From a virus (taxonomy: Duplodnaviria; Caudoviricetes): a stretch of 64,000 nucleotides of DNA. The stretch spans positions 1 to 64,000 of the IMG/VR virus record IMGVR_UViG_3300033069_000690; one strand, 5' to 3'. Every line of letters starts with the position of its first letter. Within the stretch, counting starts at the first letter, position 1. The notes below the pieces were generated by a model. It worked only from the letters and a program-made list of their open reading frames with translations, searched no databases and was not told the origin of the DNA. This document shows, piece after piece, positions 3,004 to 12,532 of this stretch. The position numbers and the translations under genes were made by a program.

Positions 3004-3267
3004 ATGAAAAAGAATACTCTCTTAACTATCTATATGATAGTATTAGTGCTCCTGAAGCTCGGAGCATGGATAGGCGTGCCATTAGCCTCTAAGATGGATG
3101 ACGACATAGTTATTGTATTAATATTCATGTCCTCATTATCCTTATTTATAATTTATAACCTTTCTGAAGGCATTAAATTTAACCGTTTAATTGAGCTATA
3201 TGAGCACGATTATGACGAGCATTATATGGTTGCTCATAATAGGAACCATAGCTCAAATCCAAGCTAA
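3004..3267 (+). CDS. small membrane protein
   Basis: 87 aa, two hydrophobic helices. Confidence 0.65.
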   Translation: MKKNTLLTIYMIVLVLLKLGAWIGVPLASKMDDDIVIVLIFMSSLSLFIIYNLSEGIKFNRLIELYEHDYDEHYMVAHNRNHSSNPS

Positions 3268-3349
3268 ACAAGATGATACAAGGATTAATTCTAGGATTAG
3301 CAGTCATAATAGCAGCGATCCTCAACGAAGACGATAATATTAACCTATC

Positions 3350-3658
3350 ATGACAGCACTCGAACAATACATAGAGGATATGCGTAAAAACATGTCCTCT
3401 AATCAATTAGAGATGAAGGAGTATTTCATCCAACTAGCTAAAGCACTTGATGCTGATTTAAAAGGAAAAAAAGAACCTGATAACAGTTATATACAAGGTG
3501 TATTACCTGATACAGCATTAAAAACTGTGTGTGAACTATTAGAGTTAAACCACGAAATAATTTATGCTGATATCCATGGTGCATTAAGAATTCAAAAAAT
3601 ATCTGAACCTCCCTCATCAAAAGGACATTATAAATATCCTTCTCTTGGGGTAAAATAA
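3350..3658 (+). CDS. hypothetical protein
   Basis: 102-aa ORF. Confidence 0.7.
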   Translation: MTALEQYIEDMRKNMSSNQLEMKEYFIQLAKALDADLKGKKEPDNSYIQGVLPDTALKTVCELLELNHEIIYADIHGALRIQKISEPPSSKGHYKYPSLGVK

Positions 3659-3682
3659 AAAATAATCTAACACAAATAACTC

Positions 3683-4237
3683 ATGAAGAAATTCATCACA
3701 TTACTCTCATTATTCCTTCTAATAGGAATTACATCTCAAGCTGATAGTATAACTACTAAAGCTAAGGAGATGGCTCAAACTGCTGTTAATACAGCTGATA
3801 GTGCTATTACTGCTGTTGATACTAGCAGTACGTTTAAAACGTTCTACAATGACCTAAAATCAGGTGTTGGTGCGCTATCATCATCACTTAAAGTTGGTGC
3901 AACTGAGGTCTTTAAAATCCTTATTAAGCAACAATTAGTACAATCTATAAGCTGGTTACTAATTATAATTGTATTATTAGGTCTAGGATTTTATGCGTTA
4001 TCTTGCGGTAAAAAAGCTGTTGATAAAGCAAATAGTAAGCGAACACAAAATGAAAATTATGGTAGAAACTATTCAATAGGAGATTCAGAATTCTTAGAGT
4101 ATATGATAGCTTCAATATTCCTAATAGGAGGAGGTCTTGGTATGCTTTGTGTATTATGTACTGATATTGTAACAGGATTCGTTAATCCAGAGTATGGAGC
4201 CATTATGGACGTAATGAATATGATTAAGAAATTTTAG
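3683..4237 (+). CDS. exported/membrane protein (signal peptide plus 2 TM segments)
   Basis: MKKFITLLSLFLLIGITSQA-D signal-peptide pattern and two further hydrophobic segments. Confidence 0.8.
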   Translation: MKKFITLLSLFLLIGITSQADSITTKAKEMAQTAVNTADSAITAVDTSSTFKTFYNDLKSGVGALSSSLKVGATEVFKILIKQQLVQSISWLLIIIVLLGLGFYALSCGKKAVDKANSKRTQNENYGRNYSIGDSEFLEYMIASIFLIGGGLGMLCVLCTDIVTGFVNPEYGAIMDVMNMIKKF

Positions 4238-4325
4238 TAGTAACACCATTGCCAATTTGGCTCTACTACTTAAATAAAGGTGTACTGCATAGCAGTTCTC
4301 ACAGTAGCTCCTTTAAGGCTACTTT
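4236..4325 (+). other. compact intergenic RNA structure (three hairpins, possible pseudoknot, T-run)
   Basis: AGTAGTA/TACTACT stem around a GCCA-ATT-TGGC hairpin; ACACC (4243-4247) is complementary to GGTGT (4279-4283); AGTAGC/GCTACT hairpin followed by TTT. Confidence 0.4.
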
Positions 4326-4350
4326 TATATTCACCTAACACTAAAAAAAC

Positions 4351-4995
4351 ATGCTTAAACAAATTAAAAAGTTACCAAAGCTAAATAAGCGAGAGGAACA
4401 AATTGTCCTATACTTAAGAAAATTTTACAGTTCTATAATCACATTGTTTCGTTATGACAGAACTAGTAACGAAGAATGTAAGGAAGTAGTAAATAATGTC
4501 GAAGTATTTGCAGCCATCCCTATGTACGAAAGTATTGTTCTTGTATTGTTTTCTCTTAGAAAAGCTCTAGGAGAAGAACGTATAAGATTTATTGACGTAG
4601 GAGCTGGTAAGGGTAACATATTAATGCTTGCTCGAACTATATGGACTTGTGCTACTAAGAATACAAGTTGGGATGATTTTGTTGGTATTGAATTTAATAA
4701 AGCTTATTGTAGAATATTATCACAATTAGATGTTATAATATTGTATAATGATGCTTTTGAAATACGTAATAAGCAACTATATAATGGGGATTCTTCCATA
4801 CGTAGAGTATTCCATATCTATCAAATAGTAAAAGATCCAGACAAACTAAAAGAGCTATATCAACTCTACATTAAATTAATGAAGTCTGGTGATATACTAA
4901 TTGTTAGTGGATTAGCTTATGAAAGTTGGTTTAAGGAGTTAAATCTAATAAGCCCAGGAAAACAAATGGGTGTAATGGTATACATAAAACCATGA
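4351..4995 (+). CDS. class I SAM-dependent methyltransferase
   Basis: Motif I FIDVGAGKGN, then acidic motif II GIEFN and YNDAF. Confidence 0.8.
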   Translation: MLKQIKKLPKLNKREEQIVLYLRKFYSSIITLFRYDRTSNEECKEVVNNVEVFAAIPMYESIVLVLFSLRKALGEERIRFIDVGAGKGNILMLARTIWTCATKNTSWDDFVGIEFNKAYCRILSQLDVIILYNDAFEIRNKQLYNGDSSIRRVFHIYQIVKDPDKLKELYQLYIKLMKSGDILIVSGLAYESWFKELNLISPGKQMGVMVYIKP

Positions 4996-5312
4996 CAGCT
5001 CCACACTTCTCACACGATCAGTGGGTGTTATTAGGCTTTATTATAGTAGTATTCATACTATTAGTAATAATGTCAGTAGTTGTTAATGAAGTAATATTAG
5101 CTCATGAAGAGTATGATCTAATTAAACTACCTAATGGTGACTACCAATACACACACCCAACTAAAGGTGTAATCATCTGCAAAAGCAATGATTTCCCAGC
5201 AATGTGTATTATCCATAGAGACTTAGCTTCTAGACCTGATGCAAAAATCAAGGATGAGGTTAGAGTCTTATTCTACAAAGAATTTAACGAATTGGTCCAC
5301 ATGGATCTATAA
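4992..5312 (+). CDS. membrane-anchored hypothetical protein
   Basis: ATGA overlap with the upstream gene; N-terminal TM helix. Confidence 0.7.
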   Translation: MTAPHFSHDQWVLLGFIIVVFILLVIMSVVVNEVILAHEEYDLIKLPNGDYQYTHPTKGVIICKSNDFPAMCIIHRDLASRPDAKIKDEVRVLFYKEFNELVHMDL

Positions 5313-7157: not shown

Positions 7158-7535
7158 ATGGTAGAAATTAAAGAATTACTAGGTAAAGTTATTACTAAAA
7201 TTGATCAAAGTAATAACGAATTAACCTTTCTTATTGAAGATGGTACTAAGTACAAAATGTACCATGAACAAGATTGTTGCGAAGATGTAACAATCGAAGA
7301 TATAAATGGTGACTTAGAAGATCTAATAGGATCTCCAATATTACAAGCTGAAGAAGTTTCAGACTACAAACCTATCCTAGAGGAAGATGTTAAGAAAACA
7401 AATGAAATCTTAGAATGGGGTTCTTGTACTTGGACTTTTTATAAGTTAGCTACAATTAAAGGTTATGTAACCATTCGTTGGTTTGGGGAATCAAATGGCT
7501 ATTATTCTGAATCAGTAACTTTTGCAAAAGTATAA
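7158..7535 (+). CDS. conserved phage hypothetical protein (YHEQDCCEDV motif)
   Basis: 125-aa ORF with a motif common in large phages. Confidence 0.8.
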   Translation: MVEIKELLGKVITKIDQSNNELTFLIEDGTKYKMYHEQDCCEDVTIEDINGDLEDLIGSPILQAEEVSDYKPILEEDVKKTNEILEWGSCTWTFYKLATIKGYVTIRWFGESNGYYSESVTFAKV

Positions 7536-7538
7536 CAC

Positions 7539-7739
7539 ATGAGAATATTTGAAAAAGTACAACTAATAGATGGTGGTCCTAATGATAGAGGTAAAGTAAT
7601 AGGTTATGTGAGTACTAAACACATGACTGCTGAGCCTAAATCAAATGATGGTTTTATAGTCTTCAGAGAAATCTCCATCAGAGAGTATAACAAACGTAAA
7701 AACGAAGCTCTTAGAGCTCTAGACCTATTCATAATATGA
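7539..7739 (+). CDS. hypothetical protein
   Basis: 66 aa, tightly packed in the operon. Confidence 0.65.
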   Translation: MRIFEKVQLIDGGPNDRGKVIGYVSTKHMTAEPKSNDGFIVFREISIREYNKRKNEALRALDLFII

Positions 7740-8302
7740 AACCATTAGAATTAACAGAAGAGCATAGATCTAAGCTATTAGAGATGTGCAAGGAATTGTT
7801 TCCTAATTATGATTTTATGATTAGAGATTTTGTAGAAAAGAATCCTAGTATCAGTCTTGGAAAGAAATCTAAAAAACTCTATGAATGTCATATCCATTGG
7901 TACGAGTTCTGTATTGAACACTTATCCAAAAAAATATATACAATTGATAACCAAGTAATGTCTGGTTATGAGTATTTTGTAAATAATTTTAGGTATAAAA
8001 AAGAACACCCAGTAGATTATCTATATGCAGACTACAAAAAGCGAGTTCAAATTTCTCCTATCATGAAGACTCTATTAGAGATCATTAAGGATAAGTTTGG
8101 AGTTAGTGTTAATATCACTCCTCAATCTACTATCCAAGATGATTGCGGATTAGATTCTCTGGATCAAGTTGAGCTTATTATGGAACTCGAAGTTAGGTAT
8201 AAAATTTCTATACCTGATGAAGATGTAAATATAAAGTTCAATCACCTATCTACATTACAAGATGTAGAAAACTATTTAATTTCAAGAAATGTTACAAAAT
8301 AA
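7736..8302 (+). CDS. two-domain protein: unknown N-terminal domain plus C-terminal acyl carrier protein (ACP) domain
   Basis: Residues 110-188 are ACP-sized and acidic, with GLDSLDQVELIMELE...ISIPDED; phosphopantetheine site Ser141 (8156-8158). Confidence 0.85.
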   Translation: MKPLELTEEHRSKLLEMCKELFPNYDFMIRDFVEKNPSISLGKKSKKLYECHIHWYEFCIEHLSKKIYTIDNQVMSGYEYFVNNFRYKKEHPVDYLYADYKKRVQISPIMKTLLEIIKDKFGVSVNITPQSTIQDDCGLDSLDQVELIMELEVRYKISIPDEDVNIKFNHLSTLQDVENYLISRNVTK

Positions 8303-8699
8303 CATCACTCTACTTGAGTTAATTGCCATTTTATTTATTCATTGGGTAGCTGATTTTGTACTTCAAACAGATTATCAAGCTAAGAATAAGAGTAAGAGCT
8401 TAAAAGCTTTATTAAGCCATACCACAGTATATAGCTTATGTACTGGTCTTTATTACTTTGCATTTTTTCCTACATCATTTCATTTACCTAATATCACTCA
8501 ATGTGATCCGGGATATCTAAATATTATAATGTTTACTCTTATAACATTTGGATGTCACACTATTACTGATTACCTAACTAGTAGGTTAAATACCTATCTA
8601 TGGGATAAGGGAGATGTACATAACTTCTTTGTATCTGTAGGATTTGATCAGTACTTACATTACCTTCAATTGCTTATCACTTACTCGTTATTAAGATGA
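8289..8699 (+). CDS. DUF3307-family membrane protein
   Basis: HWVADFVLQT, HTTVY, HTITD and DQYLH motifs with TM segments. Confidence 0.8.
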   Translation: MLQNNITLLELIAILFIHWVADFVLQTDYQAKNKSKSLKALLSHTTVYSLCTGLYYFAFFPTSFHLPNITQCDPGYLNIIMFTLITFGCHTITDYLTSRLNTYLWDKGDVHNFFVSVGFDQYLHYLQLLITYSLLR

Positions 8700-9640
8700 A
8701 AACATTAAATTTAGTAGATCCTGATAATTCTAATGTAAGGTATATTATCCAAAATATGCCTGATGGTCAACATAATGTTGTTATTAAAGAAGAAGACTAC
8801 TATTCTCTTGACTTATTAGAAGGGCAGTATATTCAAATCAAATCCCGTCTAAACAACTGGATAGATCTTGAAATTATCATCTGTGCTGTAGCCTCATTAC
8901 GTGAGCTAGGTGTAGAAGAAATTCATTTATACGTTCCTTACATATTAGGAGCTCGTAGTGACCGTAAATTCGAAGAGGGTGGTAATAACTACCTACGCGA
9001 TGTTATTTGTCCTATAATTAACTCTATGGGCTTTAAAACAGTAACTTGTATTGACCCACATAGTGATTGTTTAGAAATGGGTATTAGAGGATTTAGAAAG
9101 CAATCTAATTTAGCATTAATTAAATTTGCTTTAAATCGTTTGTACCCTAAAATTATTCCTAAACAAGATACTAAACCAACAGATTTTATATTAGTATCAC
9201 CAGATGCAGGTGCAAGTAAGAAAATCTACAAACTAGCCGAACAAATAGGTTATAAAGGAGATATTATTACTTGTAGTAAAGAAAGAGATGCTGAAGGTAA
9301 GCTGACTAAAACTGTATTTCCTTTTGAAACTCATAAATACAATGGTGAAGACTTCATTATCATTGATGATATTTGTGATGGGGGAGCCACTTTCATTAAT
9401 ATCGCACGAAGAATTAAAGATTGTTTTGCTATTCGAGGAGCCAATCAAAACATTAAACCAGGTAAAATCTACCTCATAGTAACTCATAGTGTATTCTCTA
9501 AAGGATTTAATGAGTTAAGTAAGTACTTTGATGGTATTTACTGTACTAATAGTTATTCAGAAACTAGACCAGCTAATATACTGGATAGTACTGAAACTAT
9601 CACCGCTTTGAAGAAAGTAAAACAACTAAATGTCTTTTAG
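8696..9640 (+). CDS. prs: ribose-phosphate pyrophosphokinase-like protein (probable Adps of an NARP1-type pathway)
   Basis: PYILGARSDR, DPHSD, VSPDAGA and IIIDDICDGGATF (PRT motif). Confidence 0.9.
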   Translation: MKTLNLVDPDNSNVRYIIQNMPDGQHNVVIKEEDYYSLDLLEGQYIQIKSRLNNWIDLEIIICAVASLRELGVEEIHLYVPYILGARSDRKFEEGGNNYLRDVICPIINSMGFKTVTCIDPHSDCLEMGIRGFRKQSNLALIKFALNRLYPKIIPKQDTKPTDFILVSPDAGASKKIYKLAEQIGYKGDIITCSKERDAEGKLTKTVFPFETHKYNGEDFIIIDDICDGGATFINIARRIKDCFAIRGANQNIKPGKIYLIVTHSVFSKGFNELSKYFDGIYCTNSYSETRPANILDSTETITALKKVKQLNVF

Positions 9641-9905
9641 TATGAAAATCAGACTAATTAAACAAGAAACACTAAAAAGTGCTCCATATCCTCAAGAGGA
9701 TAAATACCCTTCTAAAACAACAGTAAGAGAGGGTTATATGTTTGCTCATACTAAACCTAGAGTAGGATATCCTTTTGTAGTTTACGCTTCTAAATTAGCT
9801 CCTATATTTCATACATCAAATGTACAGAAAATAGAACATTTAGATGCTCTTACGATGACTCTGACTACCACAAATAGTGTATACCAATTACAAATACTAG
9901 AATGA
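9630..9905 (+). CDS. hypothetical protein
   Basis: 91 aa, overlaps both neighbours. Confidence 0.7.
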   Translation: MSFSMKIRLIKQETLKSAPYPQEDKYPSKTTVREGYMFAHTKPRVGYPFVVYASKLAPIFHTSNVQKIEHLDALTMTLTTTNSVYQLQILE

Positions 9906-10360
9906 GCATAGCAGGTGATATAGTAGAAGAATTTTATTACAATCGCATGAGAAAATATATTGACCGCTTAGTTGCGGAATGGCGACAACATGAAAATATC
10001 ATTATAGGAGTAGATTATGATGATACTATCTATCCTTATCGTGAGGGATTCACTAACATTCAAGATGTTATAGATACACTAAAAGAGGCTCATAAACATG
10101 GAGCAGTATTAGTTATCTTTACAGCATCTAAAGAAGAGCGTTATCCTGAGATTGAGGAATACTGTAAAGGAGTAGGTCTTGAAATAGCTGGTATTAATAC
10201 TAGCATTATCTCACCATTTGGTGATAACAGAAAGATCTATGCTAATATCTATCTTGATGACAGATCAGGATTGAATGAGTCGCTTGAAATACTCAAAGCG
10301 GCTATATACTCCATTAAAGGAGACCAAAACACTAAATCAACATTACAACAAGCATTCTAA
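9902..10360 (+). CDS. HAD-superfamily hydrolase
   Basis: Motif I GVDYDDT, motif II FTAS and motif IV YLDDR. Confidence 0.8.
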   Translation: MSIAGDIVEEFYYNRMRKYIDRLVAEWRQHENIIIGVDYDDTIYPYREGFTNIQDVIDTLKEAHKHGAVLVIFTASKEERYPEIEEYCKGVGLEIAGINTSIISPFGDNRKIYANIYLDDRSGLNESLEILKAAIYSIKGDQNTKSTLQQAF

Positions 10361-10932
10361 TGGCAACAGCAACCAAAAAAACAGTAACTCGTAGAATACC
10401 AAAAGCAAGCATTCAGCCTGCTCCAGCTGCTAAAGTTAATACAGTAGTAAACAAGAAATTCCCTCCTAGCTCTACTGAAAATTTTTTTACAGCAGAAATA
10501 AATAATAGAGATTTTAGTATTGGGGGTATAGAAAAAATTATGCCTACTATCATAGATAGTAATGATGACTTTCAATTACCTACTGATGATGATTCCTATG
10601 AGATAAGCATTAATCAAGGAAAAGGAAATAAGTTTAGAGAGATTTCAATGTTTGTAGACGGATTCCCCCATTGTTGCGGAATTTGTGTAATAGGAAGTTT
10701 TAATTTCGGAACTTCTCAATGGTCTAAGGAAGAAGTTCGTACTATCTTAGATGGTATAGTTACTTCTAAAGAAACAAGGGGAATAACCTTACAAATTACA
10801 ACAGCTCAAGGAAGAACTTGTAAAGTAGTAGCTGCTGCCTTAGCTACATCTTCTTGCTGGACAGCAGTAAAAACATTTAAAAACAAAAACTCAGGTAACG
10901 AAGTTACCATTTGGGTTTCAAATAACGAATAA
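10360..10932 (+). CDS. hypothetical protein with a Lys/Pro/Ala-rich leader; paralogue of 15839 and 18907 (possible GNAT-like fold)
   Basis: VDGFPHCCGICVIGSF and FKNKNSGN motifs are shared with the paralogues. Confidence 0.75.
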   Translation: MATATKKTVTRRIPKASIQPAPAAKVNTVVNKKFPPSSTENFFTAEINNRDFSIGGIEKIMPTIIDSNDDFQLPTDDDSYEISINQGKGNKFREISMFVDGFPHCCGICVIGSFNFGTSQWSKEEVRTILDGIVTSKETRGITLQITTAQGRTCKVVAAALATSSCWTAVKTFKNKNSGNEVTIWVSNNE

Positions 10933-10933
10933 C

Positions 10934-12532
10934 ATGGGGTTCAAAGTAAATAGTCTTTACCTTACAGATGGTTATAAGGTAGGACACAAAGCAATGTTAG
11001 CTCCAGGTACAACTCGTTTATATGGTACTTGGATACCTAGAAGTACTAAACATGCACCAAAAGGTGTGACTAAGATAGTATCCTTTGGTCAACAATTAGT
11101 TTGGAAATGGTTACATGATGAGTTTGAAGAGAATTTCTTTTTTACTAAACAAAGAAATATTGATTTTAATCATAAACATGCTAATCAAGAATTAAATAAA
11201 GCATTAAAAAATCAAGCACTTCAATTTGTTAAAGATATGTCTTTATACTTAGGTATGGAGTATGATGGTAAACACTTCGAAGAGCTATGGGATTTAGGTT
11301 ACTTACCTATCAAAGTAAAAGCCTTACCTGAAGGTATTGAAACTCTTCCTAACATTCCTCATATGACTTTTGTAAACACAGTTGATGGGTTTGCATGGCT
11401 TACTCTGTACCTTGAAACAATAGTTAGTAGCTTAGCTTGGAAACCAAGTACAGCAGCTACTATTGCTAAATTGTATCGTAGACAAGCTGAGGAATGGGTA
11501 GCTAAAACTGATCCTGCTAATATGTGGTTAATTGACTGGATGTGTCATGATTTCTCTGCTAGAGGATTAGATCCAATGAGTCAATATCTTATTGGTTTAG
11601 GACATGCTACTAGCTTCAAAGGGAGTGATACATTACCTGTAATCCCGGCTTCTCGTTATTTCTATGGAGTAGGTGAGAACGAAATGCCCATTGGATCAGT
11701 TAATGCTTCAGAACACTCTGTAAGCACTACCAAGATCTTCACAGTAGGCGAACAGCAAATGATTGCTGATTGGTTAAAGATCTTCCCTAAAGGAATCTTA
11801 TCAATCGTATCAGACACGTTTGACTTGTGGAAACTGATTACTGAATATTTACCTGCAAATAAAGAAGCTATTATGGCTCGTGAGGGTAAGCTAGTAATTA
11901 GACCTGATAGTGGAGATCCTGTAGATATTATTTGTGGTTTAAATTCTAAATCTATTTCTAATAGACCTAATGTTCAAAATAGAGCAGAATATAAAGGAGT
12001 AATAGAACTTCTTTGGGATATATTTGGGGGTACTATTAATGAACAAGGTTATAAAGTATTAGACCCTCATATTGGTGCAATCTATGGTGATTCTATCACT
12101 CCTGAACGTCAAGTACAAATCTATCGAAGATTAGCAGCTAAAGGCTTTGCAGCTACTAATATTGTATTAGGCGTAGGTTCATTTACTTACCAATACAATA
12201 CCCGTGATACCTTAGGATTTGCAGCTAAAGGTGCTTGGTTTGAGGTATTAGAATGTAAATGTACTCTAGGATTAGCAAACGGTTGTCAAAATGAGAACTG
12301 TAGAAAAGCTTACAACATCTACAAAGACCCAGTAACAGATGATGGTACTAAAAAATCATTAAAAGGGTTATTACAAGTTGAAGAACACATTTCAGGTAAT
12401 ATACTAGTATTTGAAGAGGCAACTCCTGAAATGGAATCAAGAGGGATACTTCAATTAATCTACGAAGATGGTAAGTTCTATAACTTTACTCATCTTGAAC
12501 AAGTTCGTGAACGTTTAAAACAAACAGTATGA
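10934..12532 (+). CDS. nadV: nicotinamide phosphoribosyltransferase-like protein (NadV/Nampt; probable Namat of NARP1)
   Basis: TDGYKVGH, HDFSARG, ASEHSV, SIVSDTFD, VIRPDSGDP, IYGDSIT and KSLKG motifs. Confidence 0.92.
   Translation: MGFKVNSLYLTDGYKVGHKAMLAPGTTRLYGTWIPRSTKHAPKGVTKIVSFGQQLVWKWLHDEFEENFFFTKQRNIDFNHKHANQELNKALKNQALQFVKDMSLYLGMEYDGKHFEELWDLGYLPIKVKALPEGIETLPNIPHMTFVNTVDGFAWLTLYLETIVSSLAWKPSTAATIAKLYRRQAEEWVAKTDPANMWLIDWMCHDFSARGLDPMSQYLIGLGHATSFKGSDTLPVIPASRYFYGVGENEMPIGSVNASEHSVSTTKIFTVGEQQMIADWLKIFPKGILSIVSDTFDLWKLITEYLPANKEAIMAREGKLVIRPDSGDPVDIICGLNSKSISNRPNVQNRAEYKGVIELLWDIFGGTINEQGYKVLDPHIGAIYGDSITPERQVQIYRRLAAKGFAATNIVLGVGSFTYQYNTRDTLGFAAKGAWFEVLECKCTLGLANGCQNENCRKAYNIYKDPVTDDGTKKSLKGLLQVEEHISGNILVFEEATPEMESRGILQLIYEDGKFYNFTHLEQVRERLKQTV

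Follow-up and report, generated by a model that had tools for sequence, protein, structure and literature searches.

Acyl carrier proteins (ACPs) of phages are routinely annotated as auxiliary metabolic genes (PMC5463345; PMC13573597), and their function in phages was stated to be unclear (PMC5463345). In Flavobacterium jumbophages, they adjoin envelope and lipoprotein genes (PMC13573597). In E. coli, both growth and glycerol-3-phosphate acyltransferase are strongly inhibited by apo-ACP, and SpoT was reported not to bind apo-ACP (review, PMC3896788). The closest described system for the domain presented here is bacterial AcpP (PF00550; TIGR00517; Aquifex 2ehs/2eht and E. coli 1l0h), likewise a four-helix bundle of about 77 aa whose helix II begins at a DSLD motif and which has acidic residues in helices II and III. 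Stand-alone phage ACPs (PHROG 5934 and 4154) have the PP-binding domain and the occurrence in phages in common with it. Our literature search returned no paper on a fusion of an ACP with the N-terminal domain described below, on the family of this N-terminal domain or on serine-less phage ACPs.

The window, i.e., the whole stretch of phage DNA analysed here, corresponds to positions 1–64,000 of an IMG/VR contig of 90.5 kb, which is about 59% complete. Unlike the stand-alone phage ACPs, the ACP encoded in it forms the C-terminal part of a longer polypeptide. An ORF of 188 aa with an ATG start was found where it had originally been predicted and is made up as follows, the downstream gene being listed as well:

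7736..8302, plus strand: whole fused gene, 188 aa plus stop, with an identical or near-identical ORF in independent assemblies
7736..8050, plus strand: N-terminal domain (N-domain), residues 1–105, no Pfam/PHROG match, 824 representatives at E ≤ 1e-3, AF2 pLDDT 81
8051..8062, plus strand: four-codon linker Q106–I109 (CAA ATT TCT CCT ATC region), delimited by alignments and AF2 helix ends
8063..8299, plus strand: AcpP-type ACP domain, residues 110–188 with Met110 as first residue, recognised by PF00550, NCBIfam ACP models, 2ehs and Foldseek
8156..8158, plus strand: Ser141 codon TCT, predicted 4'-phosphopantetheine site in GLDSLD, from translation and alignment
8289..8699, plus strand: downstream gene for a DUF3307 / phrog_2470 membrane protein (PF11750 E 1e-7; phrog_2470 E 2e-18)

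Genes overlap at both ends of the fused gene, whose ATG overlaps the TGA of the upstream gene (ATGA) and whose 3' end shares 14 nt with the DUF3307 gene, so that it forms part of a tightly packed run on the plus strand. The second gene before the fused one, at 7158–7535 of the window, encodes a strong DUF7448 / phrog_2650 member (E 4e-32 and 3e-50). According to the AF2 model of the full-length fusion protein (pLDDT 82, pTM 0.54), two well-folded domains are joined by a linker of three to four residues, as the helices stop at residue 104 and resume at 108. A predicted complex of the N-domain with the ACP domain scored 0.22, which is under the mark, and was weighed neither for nor against an interaction.

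The proposal that residues 110–188 form a complete ACP with Ser141 in a DSLD motif was borne out by PF00550, PHROG 5934 and AF2/Foldseek alike. Residues 112–181 matched the Pfam PP-binding model PF00550 with 40.5 bits (cut-off 20.8; E 3e-10), and the ACP domain scanned alone reached 43.3 bits, again above the gathering score of 20.8, while PHROG 5934 "acyl carrier protein" matched the C-terminal part at E 8e-14. The helices predicted by AF2 (108–121, 141–155, 161–167 and 174–183) form the four-helix bundle of an ACP, Foldseek placed the C-terminal half on solved AcpP structures with TM 0.8–0.89 and an rmsd of 1.5–2.1 Å, and the nearest PDB sequence was the Aquifex ACP 2ehs (E 2e-10). In the window protein, which has the D-S-L signature, Ser141 is the GLDSLD serine where helix II begins. 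The NCBIfam AcpP models matched at E 1e-13 to 1e-16, all under their equivalog cut-offs (TIGR00517, 49.5–50.9 bits vs. 70.45; PRK00982.1-2, 58.5–60 bits vs. 71). Judged by the equivalog score, the window domain is AcpP-like and not an AcpP orthologue.

Its identity to AcpP of Bacteroidota and other bacteria of the FCB group amounts to 42–49%, and up to 56% in the core. Unlike AcpP, the window ACP is phage-encoded, stands behind a foreign domain of 105 aa and has no genes for fatty-acid synthesis or a PPTase nearby; it also has a 4-residue insertion before helix IV, stays below the equivalog cut-off (50 vs. 70 bits) and belongs to a fused family in which members have lost the serine. In pairwise comparison, it shares 46–49% identity with stand-alone ACPs vs. 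31–40% with the other fused ACPs and is by this measure more canonical than the latter. With Ser141 intact, the window copy may be phosphopantetheinylated by host AcpS. Among IMG/VR sequences, 61 ACP matches (59 loci) were examined, mostly in frames of 74–121 aa and all with the serine, and none of them adjoins an N-domain or DUF3307 gene. Two of these ACP domains lie in long frames (L086, 3635–5023, 463 aa; L132, 9–1247, 413 aa) and represent other, unrelated phage ACP fusions.

The N-terminal part had been called unrelated to the ACP, and in fact residues 1–109 gave no match to any Pfam or PHROG family, residues 1–105 belonging to an uncatalogued phage family. A profile search of 1.8 billion proteins with this N-domain yielded 824 cluster representatives at E ≤ 1e-3, and the window protein scored 128 bits against the family profile (E 2e-32; profile positions 1–108). 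Three motifs are common to the family (LTEEHKSKLLEMC, IHWFEFC and HPVDYLY), all of which are found in the window protein. About 99% of the family is unfused, and nearly all members are free-standing proteins of 100–150 aa ending in ...EFKKLK; the window protein departs from this ending, as it reads through into the ACP domain. In a second search, an ACP fusion was seen in only 7 of 649 N-domain clusters. The fold predicted by AF2 consists of a helix, three strands and three helices (pLDDT 81); fold searches with it returned nothing convincing (best Foldseek E 0.26; VIA-align Z ≤ 5.1), and the ESM Atlas search gave no usable match. Cys18, Cys59 and His91 are invariant in the alignment of the N-domain, fused forms included, which hints at a metal or catalytic site.

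Among deposited phage genomes, the sole member of the N-domain family is XAI97299 of Leptolyngbya phage Lbo-JY46. It shares 38% identity with window residues 1–102, the same motifs and the same C-terminal end; unlike the window protein, it is free-standing (102 aa), with no ACP adjoining or within the flanking 14 kb. Some other members carry different C-terminal additions, either short tails that are rich in Cys and resemble zinc ribbons or an unrelated extension of about 100 aa (P0034, P0060, P0204 and P0111), and the N-domain thus seems, as far as its sequences tell, to tolerate assorted C-terminal modules.

The fusion itself is genuine. Logan contigs from two public runs span 7400–8564 and 7400–8541 with 0 and 2 substitutions, respectively, and without any indel; the riverine runs X4 and X5 covered parts of the gene, the junction lying outside their coverage. 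A second 188-aa sequence from another assembly (P0014) differs by the single change K118E and keeps the frame open. Moreover, the architecture recurs in diverged phages: six more fused clusters at 33–41% identity (P0042, P0172, P0175, P0177, P0178 and P0187) were recovered by profile and word-based search, and the metagenome contig L033 carries a further copy, the diverged fused homologues being drawn from JGI, ENA and Logan data. Scans of viral contigs with the window protein, P0178, P0042 and P0187 added no further fused locus. The persistence of the same two joined modules over such a large divergence speaks for a functional connection. The original prediction had allowed for an internal start at Met110. 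For the window gene this is possible, since the ATG (8063–8065) coincides with the start position of stand-alone ACPs of 75–81 aa; it does not hold for the family, as a methionine at the domain boundary is absent from most of the other fused sequences, where the ACP part can only be produced within the fusion.

With regard to the origin of the fusion, the closest relatives of the window N-domain (50–56% identity) are unfused and end in ...HPVDYLYEEFKKLK followed by the stop codon. At the position of this stop, the window reads ...KKRV followed by CAA (8051–8053, codon 106), 12 nt before Met110, which suggests the loss of a stop codon. The sequence was probably changed from TAA to CAA at codon 106, ahead of an adjacent stand-alone ACP gene starting at Met110. 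In none of about 80 related loci were the two parts found split into an N-domain gene and a subsequent ACP gene. In the tree of the N-domain, fused forms appear in four separate places, and a single clade was rejected (AU p = 0.001, tested on a 44-row subset of the 195-row tree). Between fused lineages, the ACP parts share 28–34% identity vs. 43–47% for the N parts, and this stronger divergence of the ACP parts fits separate captures. The tree of the ACP domains branches without resolution and speaks neither for nor against one common origin of the fused ACPs. An alternative to separate captures is that the fusion may have spread by recombination: P0042, which is fused, hardly differs from the unfused P0176 in the first ~65 residues, after which the two diverge sharply, a pattern resembling intragenic recombination in which the 3' half was exchanged, either together with the ACP or without it. 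Such recombination may also have blurred the N-domain tree.

Across the fused family, the attachment column of the cofactor, read from an HMM-anchored alignment, holds serine in only 4 of 8 sequences (the window protein, P0042, P0172 and L033), aspartate in three (P0175, P0178 and P0187) and tyrosine in one (P0177). By comparison, control ACPs fetched with the same query have the serine in 61/61 stand-alone viral and 84/84 bacterial sequences, i.e., in 145/145, and the difference in serine loss between fused and control ACPs is significant (Fisher p = 3e-6). The serine-less domains show no decay and are under purifying selection. Identity between P0172 (Ser) and P0175 (Asp) reaches 69% over the ACP part but only 48% over the N part; for P0177 (Tyr) and P0187 (Asp), the respective values are 63% and 60%. 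Their acidic helix II is retained, and D140, L142, D143, E146, M149, E152, I157, I159 and D161 (equivalent columns) are invariant across the fused forms, which, as established for AcpP complexes, are the helix II and loop residues where ACP docks on its partner enzymes. The loss of the serine in half of the fused sequences, together with a conserved helix II, points to a family without need of the cofactor arm. Since the serine-less domains are, in addition, conserved at least as well as the N-domain, we regard the ACP part chiefly as a module for protein recognition that is coupled to the N-domain. In E. coli, ACP lacking its cofactor (apo or unmodifiable) is still able to bind partner enzymes (PMC3896788), and the fused proteins with Asp or Tyr at the site would be permanently "apo". 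The inhibition in E. coli, however, results from overexpressing a protein that belongs to the host itself, and the window copy does have the serine. To our knowledge, no phage protein is known to exploit apo-ACP inhibition.

The gene neighbourhood gave further hints. A PPTase (PF01648) was found neither in the window, as had been stated before, nor anywhere on the 90.5-kb contig of about 59% completeness, and the same holds for AMP-binding enzymes (PF00501), acyltransferases (PF01553) and ketosynthases (PF00109) on this contig. As the contig is incomplete to this extent, a PPTase or loading enzyme could sit outside of it, and host AcpS could serve as the modifying enzyme instead of a phage PPTase. 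The window also encodes an amide-ligase cassette of the phiEco32 type, a phage module known before, at 27–33 kb, 20 kb from the fused gene, for which the ACP had been suggested to act as tethering carrier. Co-occurrence speaks against this suggestion: of 30 phage records that are related and have an unfused N-domain, 15 encode Amidoligase_2, among them 4/4 complete ones, and a PP-binding domain occurs in 0/30; the cassette thus has no need for a phage ACP. In these relatives, the N-domain gene is located 4–25 kb from the amidoligase gene, i.e., in the same genome region, yet without tight linkage.

Of the fused loci, the window and L033 come with sequence context, and both contain a DUF3307 gene (in L033 at 7537–7905, 1.1 kb downstream of the fused gene) vs. 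1/30 unfused records, in which the gene is far from the N-domain gene (Fisher p = 0.006, at small numbers). The DUF3307 membrane protein may be a functional partner of the fused protein. At 3136–5244, L033 also encodes a RimK-like ATP-grasp protein (phrog_2599), a protein of 151 aa and a Peptidase_C26 / class-I glutamine amidotransferase, all of them 0.6–2.7 kb ahead of the fused gene.

In Lbo-JY46 (PP438436.1; L001, 7001–12534), the N-domain homologue is followed after a few kb by PncB-like and PrsA-like NAD-salvage genes, and the NAD-salvage genes of the window (8696–12532) are similarly close to the fused gene. A general linkage of the N-domain to NAD-salvage (NARP1-like) genes was nevertheless rejected, since NAPRTase occurs in only 2 of 30 related records. 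Within the Prs-like/Nampt-like operon of the window, positions 9902–10360 encode a protein of 152 aa matching phrog_1238 "phosphoheptose isomerase" (E 7e-22), with no Pfam match.

From these observations, we infer that the ACP module may serve as a protein-recognition surface coupled to the N-domain and independent of phosphopantetheine, and that the fused protein binds or blocks a putative ACP-dependent host protein, an explanation to which we give an even chance of being correct. The fused gene would belong to the early, host-takeover part of the genome, and the fusion would be selectively kept. The carrier domain would be retained for its acidic helix-II surface, the docking face of an ACP, over acyl carriage. 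The N-domain would partner an ACP surface, which in most phages would be that of the host's own ACP; phages with the fusion would bring a built-in surface, by which the protein could bind or block its target in the host. For the window copy, such a role predicts a function independent of phosphopantetheinylation at Ser141. The original prediction of a decoy engaging ACP partners thereby gains indirect support from the loss of the serine alongside a conserved helix II in the fused relatives. Its example of a damped stringent response via SpoT is not backed by any of our results and is weakened by the report that apo-ACP is not bound by SpoT. Counting against a binding surface is the window ACP itself, which has the serine and resembles ordinary ACPs more than fused ones, and since the N-domain tree rejects a single fused clade, the serine-less lineages may have arisen separately, so that conclusions on their biology do not necessarily apply to the window phage. 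The genes for the ATP-grasp protein and the glutamine amidotransferase upstream in L033 count weakly against it as well, being the only hint of a link to carriage.

The fused protein could alternatively be a true carrier, in which host AcpS makes Ser141 holo and an acyl or aminoacyl intermediate is handled by the N-domain (Cys18, Cys59, His91), the DUF3307 protein or the amide-ligase enzymes. Besides the intact DSLD, the AcpP-like helix II and the proximity to ordinary ACPs in the window copy, the serine retained by P0042, P0172 and L033, the invariant Cys and His residues, which could form an active or metal site, the membrane-protein gene overlapping the 3' end of the fused gene and the ATP-grasp and amidotransferase genes just upstream in L033 are all in line with carriage. 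We still consider it possible but rather unlikely, because half of the fused sequences, with Asp or Tyr, are unmodifiable and nonetheless well conserved, the contig encodes no PPTase, adenylating enzyme, acyltransferase or ketosynthase, and the amidoligase cassette, 20 kb off in the window, is found in half of the related phages (15/30) with an ACP in none of them. A joined protein that is functionless, arising incidentally from a recent stop loss, with a free ACP from Met110 and the N-domain as the working products, would explain why Met110 lies at the usual ACP start, why CAA stands at codon 106 where the relatives stop, 12 nt upstream, and why the nearest N-domain relatives are all unfused. 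This appears improbable given that no fewer than three other diverged lineages have preserved the architecture, usually with no methionine at the junction, that the split arrangement is missing from the ~80 related loci, and that two sequence variants of the window phage keep the frame open. The concern of an assembly artefact raised at the outset, taken here as a stop codon or frame lost by assembly or sequencing error in one contig, could, in turn, appeal to the occurrence of the exact gene on only one IMG/VR contig; it is refuted by the independent assemblies crossing the junction in two runs without indel, the one-residue variant P0014 with the same 188-aa ORF and the diverged homologues from three data sources.

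Beyond the window phage, the N-domain family of about 105 aa, with its more than 800 sequence clusters from uncultured phages, could as a whole represent phage effectors acting through ACP, with free members using or trapping host AcpP and fused ones carrying a built-in, often unmodifiable surface; at present, we regard this extension as tentative and rather doubtful. The fusion provides a first physical link of phage ACPs to another protein family, and the "Rosetta stone" argument then suggests joint action of ACP with a small phage protein that is very common yet has no name. The repeated loss of the serine in the fused family further indicates that what preserves at least some ACP domains of phages is the binding surface and not carriage, and the Ser, Asp and Tyr variants of the fused protein are at hand as natural controls. 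If the N-domain does act via ACP, it would define an unrecognised class of phage host-takeover proteins directed against ACP-dependent host machinery, e.g., lipid synthesis, possibly acting at the membrane together with the DUF3307 protein.
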